Source: Escherichia phage vB_EcoM_WFL6982 | Sequence record: MK373774.1 | Reading direction: 5' to 3' (one strand) | Length of the DNA stretch: 64,000 nt | Shown here: one piece after another, positions 1-55,087 of the stretch | Layout: each line of letters starts with the position of its first letter | Position numbering within the stretch: position 1 is the stretch's first letter | Made by a program: the position numbers and the translations under genes | Notes under the pieces: generated by a model | Database searches by the model: none | Told to the model about the DNA's origin: nothing | What the model saw: the letters and a program-made list of their open reading frames with translations, nothing else

Positions 1-1491
1 TCAAACTGGACTGCCGAAATGTCTGGGTCTTCTTCTGGTCTGTCTGCAGTAATTACTATTGATTCCGTTATAATGGATTCGGGTATTCTGTTAACTGAAG
101 TTGAAACTTCTGAAGAAGCTATTACTTCTCTAACTTTCCAAGAATCTATTAAAAAATATGGTGTCCCAGGCATAGTTGCTCTTTATCCTGGTGAACTTGG
201 CGACCAGCTCGAAATTGAAATCGTATCTAAAGCAGACTATGACAAAGGTGCTTCAGCCCAGTTAAAAATTTATCCTGATGGTGGTACTCGTGCATCTACT
301 GCTAAAGCAATCTTTGGGTACGGCCCACAAACTGATGACCAATATGCAATTATCGTTCGTCGTAACGATGCTGTAGTCCAGAGTGTAGTTCTTTCTACTA
401 AACGTGGTGAACGAGATATTTATGGTAGCAATATCTTCATTGATGATTTCTTTGCTAAAGGCGCAAGCAATTATATTTTCGCTACGGCACAAGGTTGGCC
501 AAAAGGTTTCTCTGGTGTAATCAAACTGAATGGTGGCTTATCATCTAATGAAACTGTTGAAGCCGGTGATTTAATGGAAGCTTGGGATTTGTTTGCTGAC
601 CGTGAATCGGTTAATGCACAGTTGTTTATTGCTGGTTCTTGTGCTGGTGAATCTTTAGAAGTTGCTTCTACAGTTCAGAAACATGTTGTAGCAATTGGTG
701 ATTCTCGTCAAGATTGCTTGGTTCTTTGCTCGCCTCCACGTGCAGCTGTAGTTGGTATTCCTGTTAATCGTGCAGTTGATAATCTGGTTGATTGGCGTAC
801 AGCGTCAGGAACTTACACCGATAATAACTTTAATATAAGTTCTACTTATGCTGCTATTGATGGTAACTATAAATATCAATATGACAAATATAACGATGTG
901 AATCGTTGGGTTCCATTAGCTGCTGATATCGCCGGTCTTTGTGCTCGAACAGACAATATTTCTCAGCCTTGGATGTCTCCAGCCGGTTATAACCGTGGAC
1001 AAATTCTTAACGTTATTAAGCTTGCAATTGAAACTCGTCAAGCACAACGAGATCGTTTGTATCAGGAAGCTATTAACCCTGTTACTGGTACCGGTGGTGA
1101 TGGGTATGTTCTGTACGGCGATAAAACTGCCACTTCTGTTCCTTCGCCATTTGACCGTATTAACGTTCGTCGTTTGTTCAATATGGTTAAAACGAACATT
1201 GGTTCAGCATCTAAATATCGCCTTTTTGAATTGAACAACGCATTTACCCGTTCTTCTTTCCGTACAGAGACTTCTCAATATCTACAGGGTATTAAAGCTC
1301 TTGGTGGTGTATATAACTTTAAAGTTGTTTGTGATACTACCAATAACACTCCAGCAGTTATCGACCGTAATGAATTTGTAGCTACTTTCTACTTACAACC
1401 TGCCCGCTCGATAAATTATATTACGTTGAACTTTGTAGCAACAGCAACTGGTGCCGATTTCGACGAACTGATTGGTGCTGTAGGTGGTTAA
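1..1491 (+). CDS. 18: Tail sheath protein gp18, C-terminal part (5' end lies outside window)
   Basis: Open frame from position 1 in phase with ORF 19..1491; position immediately upstream of gene 19 as in T4; followed by hairpin terminator. Confidence 0.85.
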   Translation, partial: SNWTAEMSGSSSGLSAVITIDSVIMDSGILLTEVETSEEAITSLTFQESIKKYGVPGIVALYPGELGDQLEIEIVSKADYDKGASAQLKIYPDGGTRASTAKAIFGYGPQTDDQYAIIVRRNDAVVQSVVLSTKRGERDIYGSNIFIDDFFAKGASNYIFATAQGWPKGFSGVIKLNGGLSSNETVEAGDLMEAWDLFADRESVNAQLFIAGSCAGESLEVASTVQKHVVAIGDSRQDCLVLCSPPRAAVVGIPVNRAVDNLVDWRTASGTYTDNNFNISSTYAAIDGNYKYQYDKYNDVNRWVPLAADIAGLCARTDNISQPWMSPAGYNRGQILNVIKLAIETRQAQRDRLYQEAINPVTGTGGDGYVLYGDKTATSVPSPFDRINVRRLFNMVKTNIGSASKYRLFELNNAFTRSSFRTETSQYLQGIKALGGVYNFKVVCDTTNNTPAVIDRNEFVATFYLQPARSINYITLNFVATATGADFDELIGAVGG

Positions 1492-1503
1492 TAAGACGCC
1501 TGA

Positions 1504-1523
1504 TGGGCTATTTCGGTAGCCCA
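1504..1523 (+). terminator. Hairpin (tgggcta...tagccca) after gene 18
   Basis: Inverted repeat directly downstream of gene 18 stop. Confidence 0.45.
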
Positions 1524-1531
1524 TATAAATA
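1524..1531 (+). promoter_or_regulatory. T4-type late promoter TATAAATA (gene 19)
   Basis: Exact TATAAATA ~70 nt upstream of gene 19 start. Confidence 0.6.
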
Positions 1532-1603
1532 TACTATATCGTTTAAAAATTAATTCTATGGGCATCCGGTTAATCCTAAGCCCATATTACTACAGAGGCT
1601 AAT

Positions 1604-38766: not shown

Positions 38767-39269
38767 TTAGAAATATTTTTTGTATGAATTGATTACATTT
38801 TGGTCTACATCATTATCAATTTGTGCGACAAGATAAGAACTGATTTCAACTTCCTGAGGAGCTGCTTGAACTAAATCAGAGTTCAGATATTCACGAATCC
38901 AAGGATACGGATGCTTGGTCGGAGCATCCGTAATTGGACATGGCAAACCACACTGTTTCATACGAGACACAGTCAAGTAATCAACAAAAGCACACATACT
39001 CTGCGTATTGATACCTGGACATGTACCATCTTTAAAGAGGTGTGCAGCCCATTCCTTCTCTTGACTATTTACTTCCATAAAAATGTCAACTGCTTCTTGT
39101 TCACATTCTTTAGCAATTTGAACCCACTCATCACCGTCAGTACCAGATTGAAGTTGACGGATAATGTACTGAGTACCCTTGAGATGGAGTTGTTCGTCAC
39201 GAGCAATGAACTTCATAATCTTTGCATTGCCTTCCATAATTTCCATATTCTTGTGGAAGTTAAAGGTAC
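38767..39269 (-). CDS. nrdB: Ribonucleotide reductase small subunit NrdB, exon 2
   Basis: Frame continues TFNFHKNMEIMEGNAKI...; joined to exon 1 gives FYVSFA-C-TFNFHKN, colinear with E. coli R2 FYVSFACSFAFAERELMEG. Confidence 0.85.
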
Positions 39270-40360
39270 CGTTATGTTCGATTGAGCTCGCTAATTCTCA
39301 ACCCGTTCTCTTATGAACTGCTACATATTACTATGCAGACCAGACTATATCACAATCCCAGAGGGATTCTCCCCATTTCGAGTCGCTTGACCCTACGTCC
39401 GAAGACTAGTCGTTGAACCTTGCTTTGCAATTGTCGCCGTGCCATCGTTTATATGTTGATGGTGATAAATCTTTCTTATCACAATATGGACAATTCAATT
39501 GAATTCTATTTGGATTTAATTTACATCTGTCATTATGTTTTAGATAAAATCCAGGACCTTTACCAATGTGACCACAAAAATCACACGTGATTTCTTTTTG
39601 TGCAGGATGGGTCCCGTTCTTAACCATTTCTAATGTTTTTGCTGATGTTCTTTTCTTATGGTCTTCTGATAAGAAATGATGTGAACCGTCATTTACCCGT
39701 TTTGATTGAGTTTCTGACTGCATTTTACCACCGCAAAATACATGAGTACCTTCTTTTATAGCTGCAATATTGCGTTCTTTAACTTTTGCAATATGCTCAG
39801 CTTGTTGAAAATTATGTATACCTAATGCAACTCTATTTAAATTAGATTTACGCTGTATTTCACCGTCTAAAAGATGAAATGTACCATTTTCTATCTTAGA
39901 TTTAATAGAGGCAATATTTTTAGCTCGTACTTCAGGGATATTAAAAATCTGGATTTCTCTAGATTTTGCGGCTTTAGAAGCTAATTCAGAAATTTCTTCA
40001 GGAGAATATTTCATTCTAAGCTTTATAGCATGACAAGCCTGGTAATCTTTTTGAGCTAAATGTATATCATAATGTTCCTGTATAGAAAGGCACATCAAAT
40101 TATCTAAATCATTATTTTCACGGTTACCGTCTTTATGATGGATTTCATATGTTCTTCCATCAGAATCTTTAGGTATAGGTCCGTTAGCATCTATCCAAAT
40201 TTTTCTATAGTTCAATTGTGCATCCTCTTAAAAGTATAATCATATTTATATTATACTAATTAAAGGTGCAAGCAAAACCTTGGCTGCTAGTTTTCCTATA
40301 AAGGACTTTCCAGCAATTAAAGGAGTTTTCGATAAACGTTACCGTTTAAAGGCGCATTTT
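39270..40360 (-). mobile_element. Group I self-splicing intron in nrdB (about 1091 nt) carrying HNH endonuclease ORF
   Basis: Interrupts nrdB; 3' core cgtagggtcaagcgactcgaaa and 3' end gaacataacG resemble T4 td intron P7-P9 and terminal G; 5' exon ends in U. Confidence 0.8.
39406..40215 (-). CDS. I-TevIII: Intron-encoded HNH homing endonuclease (I-TevIII-like, full length)
   Basis: 269 aa; HNH motif EIHHKDGNRENNDLDNLMCLSIQEH; C-terminal Cys-rich zinc-finger-like region; inside nrdB intron. Confidence 0.85.
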   Translation of the reverse strand: MNYRKIWIDANGPIPKDSDGRTYEIHHKDGNRENNDLDNLMCLSIQEHYDIHLAQKDYQACHAIKLRMKYSPEEISELASKAAKSREIQIFNIPEVRAKNIASIKSKIENGTFHLLDGEIQRKSNLNRVALGIHNFQQAEHIAKVKERNIAAIKEGTHVFCGGKMQSETQSKRVNDGSHHFLSEDHKKRTSAKTLEMVKNGTHPAQKEITCDFCGHIGKGPGFYLKHNDRCKLNPNRIQLNCPYCDKKDLSPSTYKRWHGDNCKARFND

Positions 40361-41036
40361 ACGCAAAAGATACATAAAAACGAATAGCTTCTAAGGCATT
40401 AATAACGTGCAAACAGAGGTAAAGAGATTTCATTAGCTCACGCTTCCAATATGTCTCATGCTCAATAGCATCTTCAATAACGTCTTCGTCTGCATTAATT
40501 TCTTTTTGGTATTCGATATCGGCTTTAGCGTTTTCCCAATAACGAGTTTTAACCAGAACATCATCGTAATATTTACCTATTGATTCAGCTCGTTTCATGA
40601 TTGCTTCGTCTAATACAATCTCATCAAATACCTTAGATGGGTCTGTATAAAGATTTCGCATAATATGAGTGTACGAACGAGAGTGAATAGTTTCACTGAA
40701 TGTCCATGTTGCAACCCATGTATCTAATGAAGGGTCGGAAATCAGTGCCATAAGTACCGCAGATGGGGCCCTGCCTTGGATAGAATCTAATAATGATTGA
40801 TACTTAAGATTGTTTGTAAAGATGTCCTGTTGGAACTGAGGAAGCTTATTGAACTGCGCAGAGTCCAACATCAAGTTTACCTCTTCTGGGCGCCAGAAAA
40901 ATGACAATTGCTTTTCAATAAGTTCTTCAAAAACTTTATGTCGCTGAATATCATAACGTGCGAGGCCAAGACCAGAACCAAAGAACATTGGTTCATTCAA
41001 AACATCGACTTGTTGTGTGTTAAAAACTGTACTCAT
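40361..41036 (-). CDS. nrdB: Ribonucleotide reductase small subunit NrdB, exon 1
   Basis: 225 aa segment ending ...EAIRFYVSFA; di-iron R2 family N-terminal half. Confidence 0.88.
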
Positions 41037-41091
41037 TATATTTTCTCACTTAGTTATTAACTCATCCATGAGTAAATTATAATCAAAAGTC

Positions 41092-43356
41092 TTAAAGCTT
41101 ACAAGCAGAACAATCTTCAGCTTTAGGTGTTTCTAATTCATAGTCATCTGTACCTGACCCATCACGAGTGTTATGATAGTAGAGGTTTTTTCCGCCAAAG
41201 TACCAGAAGTAAAGCAGATCGTCAAGCATTACCGACATTGGCACTTTACCTTTCTCAAATACTGCAGGGTCATAGTAAGTATTAGCAGAAGCAGATTGGC
41301 ACACCCATTTCAACATGATAGCAACTTGGGTCAAATAAGGTTTATTACCTTTCTTAGCAAGTTTCCACGCGTAGTCGTAAAGACTCATGTTATGTTCTAT
41401 ATTAGGAACAACCTGTCGGAAGTTGCCTTCTTTAGATTCTTTAATACTTACTGGACCGCGTGGGGGCTCAATCCCGTTTGTAGAGTTCGATACTTGACTG
41501 CTTGACTCACAAGGCATGAGTGCAGACAACGTTGAGTTACGAATTCCATGTTCTTTGAGTTCAGCTCGAAGTTCTTCCCAATCACATACGTAGTTCGGGG
41601 CTGCGATTTGGTCAATCTTTTTATTGTACCAGTCGATAGGTAATTCGCCTCTAGACCATTTAGTGTCTGAATAATACTCGCAACATCCTTTTTCTTTGGC
41701 GAGTTTGATTGAAGCTTTGATAAGGCCATATTGCAATCTCTCAAACAATTCATGAGTCAAATCGTTAGCGTCTTCATATGAAGCGAAGTTAGAAGCTAAC
41801 CATGCAGCATAGTTCGTAACACCAACACCAAGATTACGACGCTTTTTGGCTTTTAAAGCTTCTGGAACCGGATAATCTTGATAGTCTAACAGGTTATCAA
41901 GTGCACGTACTTGTACTTCAGCAAGTTCATTAATTTTATCTTGGTCTTGCCAATCAAATTTATCTAACACGAATGCAGATAACGTGCATAAACCAATTTC
42001 AGCATCAGGACCATTCACATCATTAGTTGGAATAGCGATTTCACAACATAAGTTACTCTGACGAATTGGAGCTTTTTCACGAATAAACGGAGTGTAGTTA
42101 TTCGTGTTATCAACAAACTGTGGATAAATTCGAGCAGTACCAGAGCGTTCAGTCATGAACAATTCAAAGAGTTCTAGTGCTTTGATTCTTTTCTTTCTGA
42201 TTGTTGGGTCTTTTTCAGCTTTCTCATAAAGCTCACGGAATTTATCTTGATCTTCAAAGAACGAGTAGTATAGTTCGCCTGACATTTCGTGAGGGCTAAA
42301 TAAAGTAATATAATCATTTTTACCAAGGCGTTCCATCATAAGGTCATTAATCTGAATTCCGTAGTCCATATGTCGAATACGGTTTTCATCCACGCCTTTG
42401 TTATTTTTCAGAACTAATAGGTTCTCTACTTCTAAGTGCCACATCGGATAATACGCTGTAGCAGCACCACCACGAATACCACCTTGAGAACAAGATTTTA
42501 CTGCAGTTTGGAAATGTTTCCAGAATGGAATAACACCCGTATGTCGAACTTCACCCATACCGATCTTAGAACCTTCTGCACGAAGCATACCAACGTTGAT
42601 ACCAATACCAGCTCGTTTAGAAATATATTCAATAATTGATGCTGAAGTTTTGTTAATAGATTTTAACGAATCACCGGCTTCAATAACTACACAACTAGAG
42701 AACTGGCGAGTTGGAGTACGAGCACCTGCCATAATTGGGGTTGGCAATGAAACTTGATGAGTAGAAACGGCATTATAAAAACGAATAATATGTTTCAAAC
42801 GGTCATGAGTTTCGTCTTGGTGTAAGGCCATGCCAATAGCCATGATAGCAAACTGGGGAGTTTCATAAATCTTCCCAGTTGTTTTATCTTTAACTAGATA
42901 TTTTTCTTTAAGCTGCATAGCACCAGCATAAGTCAGGTCAAAGTCTCGTTCATGTTTAATCTGTGAATCGAGATAAATGATTTCTTCTGCTGAATATTGA
43001 GACAACAGCTCAGGGTCATATTTGCCTTCATTAACACAATAAGAAATATGGTCGATAAAAGCAGGCGGTTCAAACTGCCCATATACATCTTTACGAAGTG
43101 CAAACATTAGCCCTTTGGCGGCGACATACTGATAATCAGGTTCTTCGACAGAAATCGAGTTAGCTGCAACTTTAATACAAATCTTCTGGATATCTTTGGT
43201 GCTCATCCCGTCGACAAGATGGGTCTTAATTTCTTCATACAATTCATATGGGTCAATTTGTGTTCCTTCACATTGCCAAGTTAAGACTTGAATAATTTTC
43301 TGTGCATCAAAATTTTGGGATACACCTGAATTTTTCACTACTTTAAAATTATACAT
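41092..43356 (-). CDS. nrdA: Ribonucleotide reductase large subunit NrdA
   Basis: 754 aa; class Ia RNR; C-terminal CSACKL. Confidence 0.95.
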   Translation of the reverse strand: MYNFKVVKNSGVSQNFDAQKIIQVLTWQCEGTQIDPYELYEEIKTHLVDGMSTKDIQKICIKVAANSISVEEPDYQYVAAKGLMFALRKDVYGQFEPPAFIDHISYCVNEGKYDPELLSQYSAEEIIYLDSQIKHERDFDLTYAGAMQLKEKYLVKDKTTGKIYETPQFAIMAIGMALHQDETHDRLKHIIRFYNAVSTHQVSLPTPIMAGARTPTRQFSSCVVIEAGDSLKSINKTSASIIEYISKRAGIGINVGMLRAEGSKIGMGEVRHTGVIPFWKHFQTAVKSCSQGGIRGGAATAYYPMWHLEVENLLVLKNNKGVDENRIRHMDYGIQINDLMMERLGKNDYITLFSPHEMSGELYYSFFEDQDKFRELYEKAEKDPTIRKKRIKALELFELFMTERSGTARIYPQFVDNTNNYTPFIREKAPIRQSNLCCEIAIPTNDVNGPDAEIGLCTLSAFVLDKFDWQDQDKINELAEVQVRALDNLLDYQDYPVPEALKAKKRRNLGVGVTNYAAWLASNFASYEDANDLTHELFERLQYGLIKASIKLAKEKGCCEYYSDTKWSRGELPIDWYNKKIDQIAAPNYVCDWEELRAELKEHGIRNSTLSALMPCESSSQVSNSTNGIEPPRGPVSIKESKEGNFRQVVPNIEHNMSLYDYAWKLAKKGNKPYLTQVAIMLKWVCQSASANTYYDPAVFEKGKVPMSVMLDDLLYFWYFGGKNLYYHNTRDGSGTDDYELETPKAEDCSACKL

Positions 43357-43996
43357 AATAATTCCATGTTGGATAATTTGATGATTTTAGCCGGCGTCTA
43401 ACCGTTTGGGTGCTCATAGATAAAACTATTGACGCTTCATTTAATGTATCATATATTACGTCGTTTATAATTACTTTCTTTGCAAATGGATTCTTGGCTC
43501 CTATCATAGCATTAGAAATAGCTTGCTTAGTTGATTCTTTTAATGGGACTCCTTTAGAAATTTTTGTTTTAATTTTTATATTGTATTGTCCGCGTTTTTT
43601 ACCTAATAAAGAATTTCGTATCTTTTCTTTAGTCTCTTCAGATTTAACATGTCCTAGTTTGGAACGAGATATTTTATCTTTTGTTTTTTGGTCTAATTTT
43701 CGCCCTTTAAGCAAATCAACCATTTTTGCTCTAGCCCATCCAAATTCTTTATTATTTCTAGAACTCATTAAATTAACCGCGGTTGCTAAACCTAAATTGT
43801 TCGGATATATTTTTAATAAAAGAAGATGAGCCAAATAATGTTCTGAATATGTTAATTTAACTAGATTGTATGACTCATTGGTGCCACCTAAACATTTTGG
43901 GATTATATGATGCCATTCACCATCTATATCTTCAAAATTTCTTTCTTTATTTACCAAGTTTTTATATATTTTTAAATAATCCATAGTATAATCCAC
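43349..43996 (-). CDS. Free-standing HNH homing endonuclease with NUMOD3-like repeats (Mob-like)
   Basis: 215 aa; HNH motif GEWHHIIPKCLGG...N...EH; repeated KISRSKLGH / KIRNSLLGKKRG / ISNAMIGAKNP; stop overlaps nrdA start by 8 nt. Confidence 0.8.
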   Translation of the reverse strand: MDYTMDYLKIYKNLVNKERNFEDIDGEWHHIIPKCLGGTNESYNLVKLTYSEHYLAHLLLLKIYPNNLGLATAVNLMSSRNNKEFGWARAKMVDLLKGRKLDQKTKDKISRSKLGHVKSEETKEKIRNSLLGKKRGQYNIKIKTKISKGVPLKESTKQAISNAMIGAKNPFAKKVIINDVIYDTLNEASIVLSMSTQTVRRRLKSSNYPTWNYYV

Positions 43997-44314: not shown

Positions 44315-45175
44315 TTATACCGCCATTTTAGCTTTGATAGTTGGATGAGATTCATAATTTTTAAGAACGAAATCAGAATGTGTCATAGTTCCAGTAACCC
44401 AGTCCATTTGGATTTTTGTAGGCCAATTCTCAAAATTACTAGGCCAATTAATTTCAAGAGAACATAACTCTTTAGGTTCACGACGAAGAACTTCTTTGCA
44501 TTGTTCTATATGATTGCTGTAGATATGCGTGTTGCCGCCTGAGAACACTAAATCACCTGGGATAAGATTACACATCTTAGCCACAATATGCGTCAAGGCA
44601 GCGTACGAGGCAATGTTGAATGGCAATCCCAAGAAAACATCTACACTGCGTTGATACCATTGTAAATCAAGATGCCCATTACGCACATTAAATTGATAGA
44701 ACATATGACAAGGAGGAAGAGCCATTTGGTCAATTTCGGCCGGGTTCCATGCAGAAACTATTTGACGACGATCATTAGGAAGAGCTTTAATACGGTCGAT
44801 AGTTTTGTCCAATTGGTCTACACCACCAAAATCACGCCATTGCTTACCATAAATAGGACCAAGTTCGCCGCTATGATACCCAAGGTCTTTTGCCTGATTT
44901 TCATAGTTGTCGTCCCAAATAGTTTTACCTTGAATAAGACTACCATGAGTACGAATACGCAAATCATTAACATTGGTAGAACCAGACATGAACCACAGTA
45001 ACTCGGCAATACAAGCTTTCCACGCTAATTTCTTAGTTGTTACCGCAGGGAATCCTTTAGTCAGATCCCAACGTAATTTAGTTCCGAACAGGGCAATTGT
45101 TCCTGTGCCTGTACGGTCGTCTGTTTCGTAGCCATTTTCTAGGATATCATTAATCAGGTATTGGTATTGTTTCAT
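44315..45175 (-). CDS. td: Thymidylate synthase (uninterrupted, no intron)
   Basis: 286 aa contiguous ORF with TS active-site motif ALPPCHMFYQF. Confidence 0.95.
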   Translation of the reverse strand: MKQYQYLINDILENGYETDDRTGTGTIALFGTKLRWDLTKGFPAVTTKKLAWKACIAELLWFMSGSTNVNDLRIRTHGSLIQGKTIWDDNYENQAKDLGYHSGELGPIYGKQWRDFGGVDQLDKTIDRIKALPNDRRQIVSAWNPAEIDQMALPPCHMFYQFNVRNGHLDLQWYQRSVDVFLGLPFNIASYAALTHIVAKMCNLIPGDLVFSGGNTHIYSNHIEQCKEVLRREPKELCSLEINWPSNFENWPTKIQMDWVTGTMTHSDFVLKNYESHPTIKAKMAV

Positions 45176-50096: not shown

Positions 50097-50120
50097 ACAC
50101 ATAATGATAAGAGGACTACC

Positions 50121-53100
50121 ATGGTTGACATCAAACGTAAGTTCAGGGCCGAAGATGGTCTTGATGCAGGCGGTGATAAGATAGTTAACGTTGCGCTTGC
50201 CGACCGCACAGTTGGCACCGATGGCGTGAACGTTGACTTTTTGGTGCAAGAAAACACCGTACAGAATTATGACGATACGCGCGCGTATACAAAAGATTTT
50301 ATTGTTCTTTATAATAATCGTTTTTATCAAGCTTTAAGCGATATTCCAGCTCCGGCAGGCCCTTTCTCTTTGGTTAAATGGAAGGCAACTCGTGCAGATG
50401 CAGAATGGATTACAGTTCAAGGCGGAGATTTCCAATTATCAGTAGGTAACTCTATTGCGGTTGATACTTCAGCTGGCACTGATATTAATTTCACTTTGCC
50501 TCAAAATCCTTTAGATGGCGATACAGTTATTTTGTCTGATATTGGCGGTAGAGTAGGCTATGTAAAAGTTCAAATTACGGCAGAGGCTCAAAGTATTGTA
50601 AACTTTAGAGGACAACAGGTTCGTTCAGTTTTAATGACGCACCCAAAATCTAAAATGGTCTTCATTTTTAGCAACCGCCTATGGCAAATGTATGTTTCTG
50701 ATTACGAACGTAATGCAGTCACAGTAACTCCTGCTACGCCATATCAAGCACAACCTAATGATTTTATCATTCGACGTTTTACATCAGCCGCTCCTATTAA
50801 TATTACATTGCCTCGTAATGCTAATAATGGCGATATTATTAATTTAGTGGATTTAGACAAATTAAACCCATTATATCACACAATTGTCAAAACTTACGAT
50901 GATACAACTTCTATACGAGAAGCTGGTGTTCATGTAGCAGAAGGACGTAATTTTGCTGATGCTCTTTTTATTTTTGATGCAGCATCTAGTTTGTGGAGAG
51001 TTTGGGAAGGTGACCAGAAATCTCGTTTACGTATAGTTCGTAATGATACTGATTTACGCCCTAATGAAGAAGTTCTTGTTTTTGGAACTGATAATAATAC
51101 AATCTCGACGGTAAATCTTACTTTGCCTACAGATATTTTGTCTGGCGATACTGTTAAAATATCGTTGAATTATATGCGTAAAGGGCAAACTGTAAAAATT
51201 AAAGCTGCTGAAGGCGATACAATTGCTAGCAGTATTTCTTTATTACAGTTCCCAAAACGTTCGGAGTATCCACCTGATGCACAATGGGTTTCTGTTAGTG
51301 AGCTGGAATTTAATGGCGATACTTCGTATGTACCTGTACTTGAGTTAGCTTATATAGAAGATTATTCATCTGAAACAAAATATTGGGTAGTTCAACAAAA
51401 CACTGTAACCGTCGAACGAGTCGATGCATCGAGCAATACAACTCGAGCTCGTTTAGGTGTTATTGCTCTTGCTTCTCAAGCGCAAGCAAATGTTGATTTA
51501 GAAAATGCTCCTGGTAAAGAACTGGCTATTACTCCGGAAACATTAGCAAATCGTACAGCAACTGAAACTCGTCGTGGTATTGCTCGTATTGCAACAACTG
51601 CACAAGTTAACCAGAATACCGATTTTGCATTCCAAGACGACTTGATTATTTCTCCTAAGAAATTGAACGAACGTACAGCAACTGAAACCCGTAGAGGTGT
51701 TGCTGAAGTTGCAACTCAGGCTGAAACTAATGCTGGAACAGATGATACCACTATTATTACTCCTAAGAAATTGGATGCCCGTCAAGGTTCTGAAGTTTTA
51801 TCTGGTATTGTAAAATACACATCTACGACTGGTACTACAGCTGCTACTATTCGTGGTAATGCTGGGACTAACGTTTATAACAAAGCCGTAGATAATTTAA
51901 CTATTTCTCCAAAGGCCCTTGACCAATATAAAGCTACCCCTACTCAGCAGGGTGCAGTAATTCTTGCTATTGAAAGCGAAGTTATCGCTGGCGAATCACA
52001 AGCTGGTTGGGCTAATGCTGTAGTGACCCCTGAAACTCTGCATAAGAAAACTTCTACTGATGGACGTATTGGTTTAATTGAAATTGCTACGCAAGCAGAA
52101 ACTAACACTGGAACTGATTATACTAGAGCAGTAACGCCTAAGACGTTAAATGATAGGAAAGCTACGGAAGGATTATCTGGCATAGCCGAAATTGCTACGC
52201 AAGTTGAATTTGATACTGGAACTGACGATACTCGTATCTCGTCTCCACTGAAAATTAAAACTCATTTTGATTCTTCTGACCGTACCAGTGTTAATTCTGA
52301 TTCCGGACTTATTGAAGAAGGAACCTTGTGGAACCATTATACTCTTGATATTTCTAAAGCAAATGAAACACAACGTGGTACACTTCGTGTAGCGACCCAA
52401 GCTGAATCTAATGCAGGAACTTTAGATGACGTTCTTATTACTCCTAAAAAGCTTTTAGGGACTAAGTCCACTGAAACGTCTGAAGGCGTAATTAAGGTTG
52501 CTACTCAGGCTGAAACTGTAACAGGAACTTCTGCTAATACTGCTGTATCTCCTAAGAATTTAAAATGGATTGTTCAATCAGAACCATCATGGACTGCTAC
52601 TACGGCAATTCGTGGATTCGTTAAAACTTCATCTGGTTCTATTACATTTGTTGGTAATGATACAGTTGGTTCAACACAATCTTTAGAATCATATGAGAAA
52701 AATAGCTATGCGGTATCACCATATGAATTAAACCGTGTACTTGCTAACTACTTACCGTTGAAAGCTAAAGCAGCTGATAGTAATTTGTTAGATGGTCTAG
52801 ATTCTCTTCAGTTCATCCGTAGAGACATCGACCAGACGGTTAATGGTTCTTTAAGTCTTACTAAACAGACCAACCTGAGTGCTCCTTTAGTATCTACAAG
52901 CACTGCTTCTTTTGGTTCCGAAGCATCTGTTACTCGTAGATTAACTCTTAATGACTCTAGCGGTTCCGAAATATTTTTCACTAAAGGAACCCAATCTCTT
53001 AGTAATAAAGAGAATTTCGTTGTTAGAGCATGGGGCAATAGCGCTACAGATGGTGCCCGTGATACAGTATTTGAAGCGGGTGACGAAACCGGATACCATT

Positions 53101-53954
53101 TCTATTCTCAGCGCGCTGCTGATAATAAAGTATCATTTAATATTAATGGAACACTTTATTCAACAGGTATTGTTTCTACAAATGGATTAAATGTTACAGG
53201 TGTTTCTACCTTTACAGGGCCTATTAGTGCTACAGGCGAAATTGTTTCTAGTTCTCCTATTGCATTCAGAGCTATTAATGGTAACTATGGTGTTATGCTT
53301 TATAATGCTGGTAACAGTTCTTATATTGCATTAACTAACTCAGGTGACCAGACCGGGACGTTTAATAACTTACGCCCGATCACGATTAACAACGCCACAG
53401 GCTTAGTTCGTCTTGACAATGGTGTTCAAATCACGAGTGGTGCAACAATAACTACCGGTGGGTTAACTGTAAATAACAGAATTATTTCTAACGGCGTTAA
53501 AACCGCCACTGTTTATACCGATAAACCAACAGCTTCTACTGTAGGTTTTTGGTCTATTGACATTAACGATTCTGCTGTATATAGCCAATTCCCTGGATAC
53601 TGGACGCGTGATAACAAAGGTAACCGTGACCAAGAAATTAAATATCCTGGTACTTTGACTCAATTCGGCAATAGCTTAGATTCGCTTTATCAGGATTGGA
53701 TTTGTTATCCTACAGGTGCAAATGGCGGTAGCATTCGATATACTCGTACCTGGCAGAAAAATAAAGATGCTTGGACTTCATTTGCAATGGTATTTGATAG
53801 TGGCAACCCACCTTCACCTAGCGATGTCGGTGCTATCCCATCTGATAATGCTGTTATTGGAAACCTTACTATTCGAGACTTCTTACAATTAGGAAATGTG
53901 AGAATTGTTCCAGACCCGGTTAACAAAACAGTTAAATTTATATGGGTTGAATAA
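50121..53954 (+). CDS. 34: Long tail fiber proximal subunit gp34
   Basis: 1277 aa; internal ~40-aa repeats; synteny 34-35-36-37. Confidence 0.93.
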   Translation: MVDIKRKFRAEDGLDAGGDKIVNVALADRTVGTDGVNVDFLVQENTVQNYDDTRAYTKDFIVLYNNRFYQALSDIPAPAGPFSLVKWKATRADAEWITVQGGDFQLSVGNSIAVDTSAGTDINFTLPQNPLDGDTVILSDIGGRVGYVKVQITAEAQSIVNFRGQQVRSVLMTHPKSKMVFIFSNRLWQMYVSDYERNAVTVTPATPYQAQPNDFIIRRFTSAAPINITLPRNANNGDIINLVDLDKLNPLYHTIVKTYDDTTSIREAGVHVAEGRNFADALFIFDAASSLWRVWEGDQKSRLRIVRNDTDLRPNEEVLVFGTDNNTISTVNLTLPTDILSGDTVKISLNYMRKGQTVKIKAAEGDTIASSISLLQFPKRSEYPPDAQWVSVSELEFNGDTSYVPVLELAYIEDYSSETKYWVVQQNTVTVERVDASSNTTRARLGVIALASQAQANVDLENAPGKELAITPETLANRTATETRRGIARIATTAQVNQNTDFAFQDDLIISPKKLNERTATETRRGVAEVATQAETNAGTDDTTIITPKKLDARQGSEVLSGIVKYTSTTGTTAATIRGNAGTNVYNKAVDNLTISPKALDQYKATPTQQGAVILAIESEVIAGESQAGWANAVVTPETLHKKTSTDGRIGLIEIATQAETNTGTDYTRAVTPKTLNDRKATEGLSGIAEIATQVEFDTGTDDTRISSPLKIKTHFDSSDRTSVNSDSGLIEEGTLWNHYTLDISKANETQRGTLRVATQAESNAGTLDDVLITPKKLLGTKSTETSEGVIKVATQAETVTGTSANTAVSPKNLKWIVQSEPSWTATTAIRGFVKTSSGSITFVGNDTVGSTQSLESYEKNSYAVSPYELNRVLANYLPLKAKAADSNLLDGLDSLQFIRRDIDQTVNGSLSLTKQTNLSAPLVSTSTASFGSEASVTRRLTLNDSSGSEIFFTKGTQSLSNKENFVVRAWGNSATDGARDTVFEAGDETGYHFYSQRAADNKVSFNINGTLYSTGIVSTNGLNVTGVSTFTGPISATGEIVSSSPIAFRAINGNYGVMLYNAGNSSYIALTNSGDQTGTFNNLRPITINNATGLVRLDNGVQITSGATITTGGLTVNNRIISNGVKTATVYTDKPTASTVGFWSIDINDSAVYSQFPGYWTRDNKGNRDQEIKYPGTLTQFGNSLDSLYQDWICYPTGANGGSIRYTRTWQKNKDAWTSFAMVFDSGNPPSPSDVGAIPSDNAVIGNLTIRDFLQLGNVRIVPDPVNKTVKFIWVE

Positions 53955-53962
53955 GAGGTTAT

Positions 53963-55087
53963 ATGGAAAAATTTATGGCAAGGTTTGGACAGGGATACGT
54001 CCAAACGCCGTTTTTATCGGAAAGCAATTCAGTTAGATTTAAGCTAAGTATAGCGGGTTCATGCCCGCTTTCAACAACTAATCCGTATATTTTATTCCAA
54101 AATGAGCCTTTAGGGTTGCAGTCTTTTGGTATTGGACTAAATGTTAGGGTGATAAATCCGGAAAATGGAACTATAGTTGATAGTAAATTATACAATTTTG
54201 CGCCTACAAATAATGCAACTTCAGCTGCATTTATTTCGTTTGTTAATACATACGCAGATAATTTCATTTTCGCATTTATTTCCAATAACAAATTTAATTT
54301 GCCACCAGAAATAATTGAATGGTTTAAAGCTGCTGGGAGTTCAGTTATACCGTCAATTGAAGTTGCTAGTCTTGTTGATATTTCATATTCAGCGTTTTAT
54401 GTTTCAGGTAAAAATACTATTGCATTAGAACACATAAAATACAGTAATAAGAAAACAATTTCTGATTACGCAACTCCATTAGATATTGTATATGACTCTA
54501 TTGCTGATATAGGTGCTACCGGCTATCCTAGACGTACATATGAAGCTCTAGAAACGTTTTTATCTCCTGTTGGAGGAACTAACAATGAAATAAAAAGGAT
54601 GCCTACATCATCCCTTGTTACTCCTATCGCAAACTATGGATTAAAGCCTACAGATTTTCTTTATTTGAAATTTCAATTAATGGCTGATGAAGCATTACTA
54701 GAGGAAGGAACCGCAAGACTTTCAATTCGTTTCTTTAAGACTCCATCTAGCTCTCCTATATCATCTAAAGATATAAACTTTGATGGAACTGCTGGTGAAT
54801 GGAAGTTATACGAAGAATATGTTGAAATACCAGCCGAAGCCGATGGCTTTACGGTATATTGTTACCGTACGGCCCCAGTCGGTCAAGGTGGACTAAGAAA
54901 TGTTATTTTCACTGAAGTATCATGTAACGGAAGTATAGCAAAACCTGCTGAGTTTGGTATAAACGGTATTCGTGTTAATTACATTGATGAATCATTAACC
55001 GGTAATGATATAATGGACTTGCCTACTCAGTTATCTAACGACACAGGTAAGGTATTTGGGCAGGAATTTAAAGAGTACACAGAATAA
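53963..55087 (+). CDS. 35: Long tail fiber hinge connector gp35
   Basis: 374 aa; synteny. Confidence 0.85.
   Translation: MEKFMARFGQGYVQTPFLSESNSVRFKLSIAGSCPLSTTNPYILFQNEPLGLQSFGIGLNVRVINPENGTIVDSKLYNFAPTNNATSAAFISFVNTYADNFIFAFISNNKFNLPPEIIEWFKAAGSSVIPSIEVASLVDISYSAFYVSGKNTIALEHIKYSNKKTISDYATPLDIVYDSIADIGATGYPRRTYEALETFLSPVGGTNNEIKRMPTSSLVTPIANYGLKPTDFLYLKFQLMADEALLEEGTARLSIRFFKTPSSSPISSKDINFDGTAGEWKLYEEYVEIPAEADGFTVYCYRTAPVGQGGLRNVIFTEVSCNGSIAKPAEFGINGIRVNYIDESLTGNDIMDLPTQLSNDTGKVFGQEFKEYTE

Follow-up and report, generated by a model that had tools for sequence, protein, structure and literature searches.

A very probable RB3-type group I intron with an intact I-TevIII gene and a donor-type exon tract in nrdB of a Mosigvirus phage

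The closest described relative of the locus analysed here is the nrdB intron of phage RB3, which carries the gene of the homing endonuclease I-TevIII (Eddy & Gold 1991; Robbins et al. 2007, PMC1865063). In that enzyme each of the substitutions H26A, H27A, N39A and H48A abolishes cleavage, two zinc fingers, marked by the cysteine pairs C211/C214 and C242/C245, are required for DNA binding, and the C-terminal region with the zinc fingers mediates dimerisation (PMC1865063). RB3 I-TevIII is reported to be weak and labile, with low specific activity and affinity, and homing of the RB3 intron reached 4.3% per recipient, more than 40-fold over the T4 control (PMC1865063). The nrdB intron of T4 lacks 491 nt of the same ORF (positions 40147..39657 of the stretch analysed here), lost between short CATA repeats (...ACATA / ...CCATA); its frame stops directly after codon 22, the endonuclease is dead and mobility depends on MobE, which drives trans-homing of the T4 intron (PMC2790892). 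The nrdB introns of PD112 and DCP80 are non-autonomous; their whole endonuclease gene (785 nt) is absent, and ACAATTG repeats bound the break. The T4 td intron is of the same class (IA in the T4 record) and follows the same logic, with an ORF looped out of the ribozyme, a late promoter and a hairpin that sequesters the RBS, but it sits in a different host gene and encodes I-TevI, a GIY-YIG monomer that cuts at -23/-25, whereas I-TevIII is an HNH dimer that cuts at -14/-16. According to a review (PMC2988022), intron ORFs are preceded by middle/late promoters, early and middle read-through transcripts hide the RBS, and late transcripts start within the hairpin and are translatable.

We analysed a stretch of 64,000 nt from Escherichia phage vB_EcoM_WFL6982 (MK373774.1), hereafter the window, in which an earlier note made from the letters alone had proposed a group I intron in nrdB. 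The window is 100% identical in sequence to Escherichia phage vB_EcoM_WFK (MK373775.1; classed in its record as Mosigvirus, Tevenvirinae), window coordinates being equal to the coordinates of that record minus 95998. The positions that the note had given for both exons and for the insert were correct to the base, on the minus strand, and the locus is laid out as follows:

40361..41036, minus strand: nrdB exon 1, 676 nt, with 225 codons and the first base of a Cys codon
39270..40360, minus strand: group I intron (predicted subgroup IA), 1091 nt, from AAAAUGCGCC... to ...GAACAUAACG, with omega-G at 39270
39406..40215, minus strand: I-TevIII homing endonuclease gene, 269 aa, TTG start, TAG stop
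38767..39269, minus strand: nrdB exon 2, 503 nt including the stop codon

The insert is almost certainly the known mobile intron (group I, subgroup IA) that T4-like phages have in nrdB, here undeleted and of the RB3 type. It shares gene, insertion site and length (1091 nt) with the RB3 intron and is 99.5% identical to it over 1091/1091 nt; RB3 differs in having mobE upstream of nrdB, where the window has no adjacent mobE, and the host genome of the window is a Mosigvirus with exons only ~79% identical to those of RB3. Junctions and ribozyme are also those of the T4 nrdB intron (98.2% identity over the common parts), as is the region of the promoter, hairpin and RBS, and the ribozyme and insertion site recur in the introns of PD112 and DCP80, which are RF00028 members. 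The 785-nt deletion of PD112 corresponds to window positions 40212..39428, and the DCP80 copy is 91.5% identical. The statement in the note that T4 has a deleted and RB3 an intact copy agrees with annotation and literature. In the public record MK373775, nrdB is split into two separate "subunit beta" CDS with a hypothetical protein, I-TevIII, between them, the intron is unannotated, and the exon-2 CDS begins at an internal ATG, leaving out CTFNFHKN and onward; correcting this is where the analysis has annotation value. The plus-strand ORFs over the intron are short (42-56 aa).

The exon-1 half matched the Pfam family Ribonuc_red_sm (PF00268) with an E-value of 3.4e-19 (profile positions 9-141 of 281) and the exon-2 half matched it with an E-value of 4.2e-13 (positions 174-271 of 281). 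In the list of open reading frames, the ORF of the N-terminal half of the RNR small subunit spans 41036..40359 (minus strand); in unspliced RNA the exon-1 frame ends at a TAA made of the last exon base, T, and intron bases 1-2, AA. The 5' exon was said to end in U, and the last base of exon 1 is indeed T. At its 3' end the insert reads ...GAACATAACG, whose last base, G, is position 39270. Joining the exons yields 1179 nt that translate into 392 aa with zero internal stops; the junction codon T/GT encodes Cys and the product reads ...AIRFYVSFA-C-TFNFHKNMEIMEGNAKI....

The colinearity that the earlier note expected to be restored by these junctions is observed directly, in three independent comparisons. 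In the T4 annotation nrdB consists of two joined pieces around a 598-nt intron with the same boundaries as in the window (...TTTGCGT/AAAATGCGCC... and ...GAACATACG/GTACCTTT..., the slash marking the junction), and in the RB3 annotation, too, the pieces of nrdB are joined, the intron between them being 1091 nt long and at the identical position. The spliced nrdB aligns ungapped from end to end, at 98.0-98.4% identity, with the uninterrupted nrdB of sister Mosigvirus phages (NicPhage, G53, AV110 and others). Against E. coli R2 the product of the joined exons is colinear (E-value of 6e-128, residues 3-388), and the block AIRFYVSFAC(T/S)F..MEGNAKI runs unbroken over the junction in this alignment. 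On these three lines of sequence comparison the proposed junctions appear to be right. By homology, the intron would be spliced in the window phage, and its near-identity to the T4 and RB3 introns points to guanosine-dependent self-splicing: a free guanosine would attack 3' of the exon-1 U, held as a U.G pair in P1, and the released exon would then attack after the terminal G at 39270, joining ...UUUGCGU to GUACC.... The spliced mRNA would encode a 392-aa class Ia RNR beta subunit.

Scanning the window with Rfam at the gathering threshold gave no match. In E-value mode, RF00028 matched 39561..39321 with 34 bits (GA 50; E-value of 1.2e-6 in a 1.2-kb search and 6.3e-5 for the whole window), and this match covers the 3' part only: the 3' elements (R, S, P8, P9) align well, and the model places the 5' helices, wrongly, in the ORF. 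The T4 nrdB intron likewise falls below GA. Natural copies without an ORF or with a short one scored 68.6 bits (PD112), 74.1 bits (DCP80) and 57.9 bits (SG1) against the same GA of 50. The window's score falls below GA because the ORF, an insertion of ~800 nt, sits in the P6 region. The Rfam comparison that the note had named as a check failed at the threshold for the window sequence itself and succeeded for ORF-less copies of the same intron, so that the covariance-model evidence for the window is indirect. A standard Rfam scan overlooks ORF-bearing introns of the nrdB kind, that of T4 among them.

We aligned six distinct ORF-less cores (the window, which is identical to RB3; PD112; DCP80; S16; SG1; T4). 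PD112 has the window's own ribozyme core without the ORF, apart from one 2-nt indel in the P6a loop, and the window core differs from that of T4 at 8 positions, all of them in loop or joining segments or preserving pairing. A P1-P9.2 model was drawn by hand from these aligned cores, partly guided by covariation, which makes its pair statistics somewhat optimistic: 99.8% of 527 cells are standard pairs over the six variants. Nine compensatory pairs are observed (three in P2, one each in P5, P6a, P7.2 and P9, and two in P9.2), none of 500 shuffles reached the values of the model, and six slid controls gave 0 compensatory pairs each. P3, P4, P7 and P7.1 are invariant in the alignment, where covariation is uninformative; the predicted innermost core (P3, P4, P7) rests on family similarity and not on covariation. 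A P6 register with C99-G166 was dropped, as T4 and DCP80 would mismatch; the register G93-C167...G98-C162 fits 6/6 variants. The elements of the model are as follows:

40273..40364, minus strand: ribozyme 5' half, from the alignment-based structure
40364-40361 with 40355-40352, minus strand: P1, GCGU/AAAAU GCGC, 4 bp, with U(40361).G(40355) at the splice site
40348-40333, minus strand: P2, three compensatory pairs
40325-40320 (5' strand) and 39374-39369 (3' strand), minus strand: P3
40315-40310 with 40290-40285, minus strand: P4
40305-40294, minus strand: P5, one compensatory pair
40283-40273 (5' strand) and 39427-39418 (3' strand), minus strand: P6
39270..39427, minus strand: ribozyme 3' half, from the structure alignment and Rfam
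39411-39407 with 39347-39343, minus strand: P7
39406-39397, minus strand: P7.1, GUC-UUCG-GAC
39393-39380, minus strand: P7.2, GGGUC-AAGC-GACUC, with a compensatory change from U-A to C-G in DCP80
39368-39354, minus strand: P8
39338-39321, minus strand: P9, one compensatory pair
39318-39305, minus strand: P9.1
39303-39280, minus strand: P9.2, two compensatory pairs

With ORF-less natural copies passing RF00028 and nine compensatory pairs in P1-P9.2, the assignment to group I holds. Among the hallmarks of this group we find the U.G pair of P1, omega-G, helices P3-P8 with a P3/P7 pseudoknot that can be drawn, and the R and S elements, to whose consensus GGUUCAACGACUA and GAUAUAGUCU align. Between P7 and the 3' strand of P3 lie P7.1 and P7.2, a hallmark of subgroup IA, and the T4 record has "group 1A intron". 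By inspection, a P10 pairing would have at most 2 bp, none of them convincing. The core strings quoted in the note are present at 39397..39270. Its comparison of the 3' core with that of T4 td also stands: the two introns have strongly similar P7-P9 cores and 3' ends, with the common blocks AACGACTA, GTAGGGTCAAG.GACTCGAAA, GATATAGTCTG and GAACATAA.G, a 3' core that is also common to many phage group I introns.

The full-length 269-aa HNH ORF reported in the note is found at 40215..39406; it carries EIHHKDGNRENNDLDNLMCLSIQEH and matches Pfam HNH_3 with an E-value of 6e-13. The parts of the protein for which functions are known from RB3 were located as follows:

40072..40140, minus strand: H-N-H catalytic motif, with H26, H27, N39 and H48 all present
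39427..39585, minus strand: two CX2CX12-13HX3C zinc fingers, residues 211-231 and 242-263, DNA-binding role taken from RB3

The ORF is identical to RB3 I-TevIII at 268/269 residues without gaps, and WilhelmHis, JK45 and FL31 encode it with 100% identity. Its sole difference from RB3 is Y23 in place of D23, and Y23 is the state in 7/8 copies when codon-23 alleles are compared in phage loci (8 copies); exact-pattern scans of IMG/VR for both codon-23 alleles gave no matches. The zinc-finger residues C211, C214, C242 and C245 are present, so that closer alignment, in which inactivating changes would have counted against the note, leaves the eight tested residues and both zinc fingers intact. A sequence search of the PDB with I-TevIII returned no I-HmuI match, the best E-value being 0.29 for an unrelated enzyme. 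The last ~7 codons of the ORF (CKARFND and stop) also supply the ribozyme with its P6 3' strand, J6/7 and P7 5' strand. In the folded RNA the P6 region would loop out the I-TevIII gene, and by analogy with the RB3 enzyme the protein would bind intronless nrdB as a dimer and may promote homing in the window phage.

Upstream of the TTG start, two putative expression signals overlap:

40220..40269, minus strand: P6a hairpin, predicted to pair the RBS AAGAGG with CCUUU, its loop holding the late-promoter box
40243..40250, minus strand: TATAAATA, T4 late-promoter consensus, 27 nt upstream of the TTG start, function predicted

AAGAGG lies at 40229-40224 with 8-nt spacing to the start codon. The hairpin has a minimum free energy of -14.9 kcal/mol (z=-3.46), and in the alignment of six cores P6a shows, besides its compensatory pair, one G.U change. 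In the window TATAAATA is over-represented: it occurs 18 times where 7.5 would be expected, and most of these sites precede late genes. In transcripts arriving from upstream the RBS would be locked in the hairpin, and late transcripts started at TATAAATA in the loop would lack the 5' arm and be translatable; the T4 literature suggests this timing for the window phage as well. As a separate observation, a putative I-TevIII operator can be pointed out, since the intron sequence GCACCTTTAATTA resembles GTACCTTTAACTT of the 3' exon; the likeness is short enough for chance, and it agrees with a suggestion in the review (PMC2988022).

The flanks of the intron hold a second kind of information. The window nrdB exons are 98.3% identical to those of intronless G53, 79.4% to those of RB3 and 77.9% to those of T4, yet 12/20 of the differences from G53 lie at -58 to -1 from the insertion site (binomial P=3e-11 for this clustering). 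At 12/12 of the clustered sites the window has the base of RB3 and T4, and 20/20 differences from G53 are synonymous. Window and RB3 exons are 100% identical from -74 to +16, against 77-79% elsewhere, so that a donor-type stretch is directly visible in exon 1:

40362..40435, minus strand: co-converted 5' exon tract, Tequatrovirus-type within a Mosigvirus-type nrdB

The I-TevIII cleavage position lies within this tract. In other phages with the intron the tract ends elsewhere, FL31 being RB3-type for at least 170 nt upstream and AV111 and PaulHMueller for more than 100 nt downstream, and these differing ends point to several independent conversion events. We consider it rather probable that the window preserves a natural record of homing across genera, in which an RB3-type intron entered a Mosigvirus nrdB and left a short, upstream-skewed tract of about -74 to +20. 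The Mosigvirus target differs from the Tequatrovirus site by 12 synonymous differences within 58 nt, including -1, -7 and -13, which adjoin the sites of insertion and cleavage. If this reading is true, then together with the tracts of FL31, AV111 and PaulHMueller it would mean that homing by I-TevIII recurs in nature, that the enzyme accepts considerable variation of its target, and that homing exceeds what the weak in vitro activity of the enzyme suggests. The co-conversion tracts would offer a natural illustration of homing between phage genera and could serve to map the target tolerance of I-TevIII.

It is unlikely that the intron splices and has lost autonomous mobility, be it through a weak or unexpressed I-TevIII or in consequence of having arrived by recombination or trans-homing. 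The low affinity and homing frequency of the labile RB3 system point in that direction, as do the mobilisation of the defunct T4 intron by MobE in trans and the many deletion derivatives (T4, SG1, PD112, DCP80), which indicate that the endonuclease gene decays often. In the window, however, the ORF is intact, identical in several unrelated isolates and keeps all tested functional residues, and sequence of the donor type is found only from about -74 to +20, where I-TevIII cuts and the intron is inserted. Trans-homing driven by MobE is unlikely here because the window has no mobE, the nrdA-nrdB spacer measuring only 55 nt, and because the 5' part of nrdB, where MobE nicks, is Mosigvirus-type and not donor-type.

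Two further readings concern the gene and not the mobility of its insert. The nrdA of Aeromonas phage Aeh1 has been described as genes-in-pieces, and the two "subunit beta" CDS of MK373775 with a hypothetical protein between them would fit an nrdB likewise made as two separate polypeptides that assemble; this is barely conceivable here, as the ORF lies between the halves of a complete, conserved group I ribozyme, the first ATG of exon 2 is preceded by 8 codons of a conserved sequence that intronless alleles and E. coli R2 have without a break, and the annotations of T4, RB3 and other phages give a spliced gene for this element. Nor do we give much credit to a decayed, splicing-defective intron that leaves nrdB a pseudogene compensated by the host RNR, which seems very improbable. 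Splicing in the window phage is predicted from sequence, and nrdB is dispensable in laboratory hosts, so that viability of the phage is no proof of splicing. Yet the core is identical to that of RB3, differs from the T4 intron in loops or in ways that preserve pairing, and is flanked by two intact exons in frame, whose differences from G53, being all 20 synonymous, indicate purifying selection on the joined protein. An intein was rejected, as the exon-1 frame hits a TAA at the boundary and 1091 nt is not a multiple of 3. A spliced RB3-type intron is the reading that we retain.

Among ~670 phage records matching nrdB, 128 have the intron, and in 84 of these it is present at 80% of full length or more, these counts including GenBank/RefSeq duplicates; the remaining intron records are T4-type, other deletion derivatives or ORF-less forms. 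With at least 84 near-full-length records, intact I-TevIII is far commoner than the "few relatives" of the note, a statement now outdated. The element has been described before and shows no departure from the RB3 paradigm, and it carries little weight as a discovery, since element, endonuclease, mobility and regulation were described in 1986-2007 and near-identical copies exist in dozens of phages. The only new facts are the intron annotation missing from the record and the clear cross-genus co-conversion tract in the flanks. The td gene in the window is uninterrupted.

The open reading frame of the nrdB intron, which encodes the HNH homing endonuclease I-TevIII, has given rise to at least three independent deletion derivatives in other phages, in T4, in PD112 and DCP80, and in SG1, each bounded by short direct repeats. 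In T4, 491 nt were deleted at CATA repeats (equivalent to 40147..39657 of the window), while the introns of PD112 and DCP80 have lost 785 nt at ACAATTG repeats (window equivalent 40212..39428). SG1 carries an internal deletion distinct from both of these, and together the four phages show stages in the decay of the endonuclease gene. The intron is close to full length, at 1090 nt, in Salmonella phage pSe_SNUABM_01 and Klebsiella phage EI, but in both phages the endonuclease ORF is annotated in a shortened form, which begins at intron position 346 in pSe_SNUABM_01 and at position 160 in EI. This combination of intron length and shortened ORFs suggests that their I-TevIII genes are frameshifted, representing an early stage of decay.

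A group I intron was also identified at about 1420..1590 in the marine Pseudoalteromonas phage pYD6-A (Schitoviridae, NC_020849), within a gene annotated as “ATPase” in the form of a two-piece join. Its 3' end (P7'-P9.2) is 86.5% identical to that of the nrdB intron; the pYD6-A intron scored below the gathering threshold of Rfam and holds a different HNH ORF.

Within the window, nrdB gave the only group I intron signal. Two nearby genes are:
43349..43984 (- strand), free-standing endonuclease gene of 211 aa, directly upstream of nrdA
44315..45175 (- strand), td, uninterrupted

Both the td intron and I-TevI are absent from td, and the spacer between nrdA and nrdB comprises just 55 nt (41037..41091), with neither mobE nor nrdB.1, two respects in which the window differs from T4 and RB3. 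The free-standing endonuclease gene shares its last 8 nt with the beginning of nrdA and occupies the site where T4 has nrdA.1 and nrdA.2. Its product has an HNH-like motif (DGEWHHIIPK...N...H) at the N-terminus and matched NUMOD3 and an I-TevI-type DNA-binding domain in Pfam. The record labels this gene “group I intron endonuclease”, although it lies outside any intron.

Directly upstream of the late promoter, the intron contains GCACCTTTAATTA (40257..40269, - strand), which is similar to GTACCTTTAACTT (39257..39269, - strand), the first bases of nrdB exon 2 and part of the homing site. The resemblance agrees with the I-TevIII operator suggested in a review (PMC2988022), and could be due to chance since the match is short.

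In the public annotation, nrdB (38767..41036; MK373775 134765..137034) is given as two independent CDS, the second beginning at an internal ATG (39237); MK373775 has no intron feature at nrdB and names I-TevIII a hypothetical protein. For the gene of the proximal subunit of the long tail fibre (~50119..54265, + strand; record 146119-150265), the annotation gives a single large CDS together with small fragments assigned the same product, which may reflect a frameshift or an annotation artefact.
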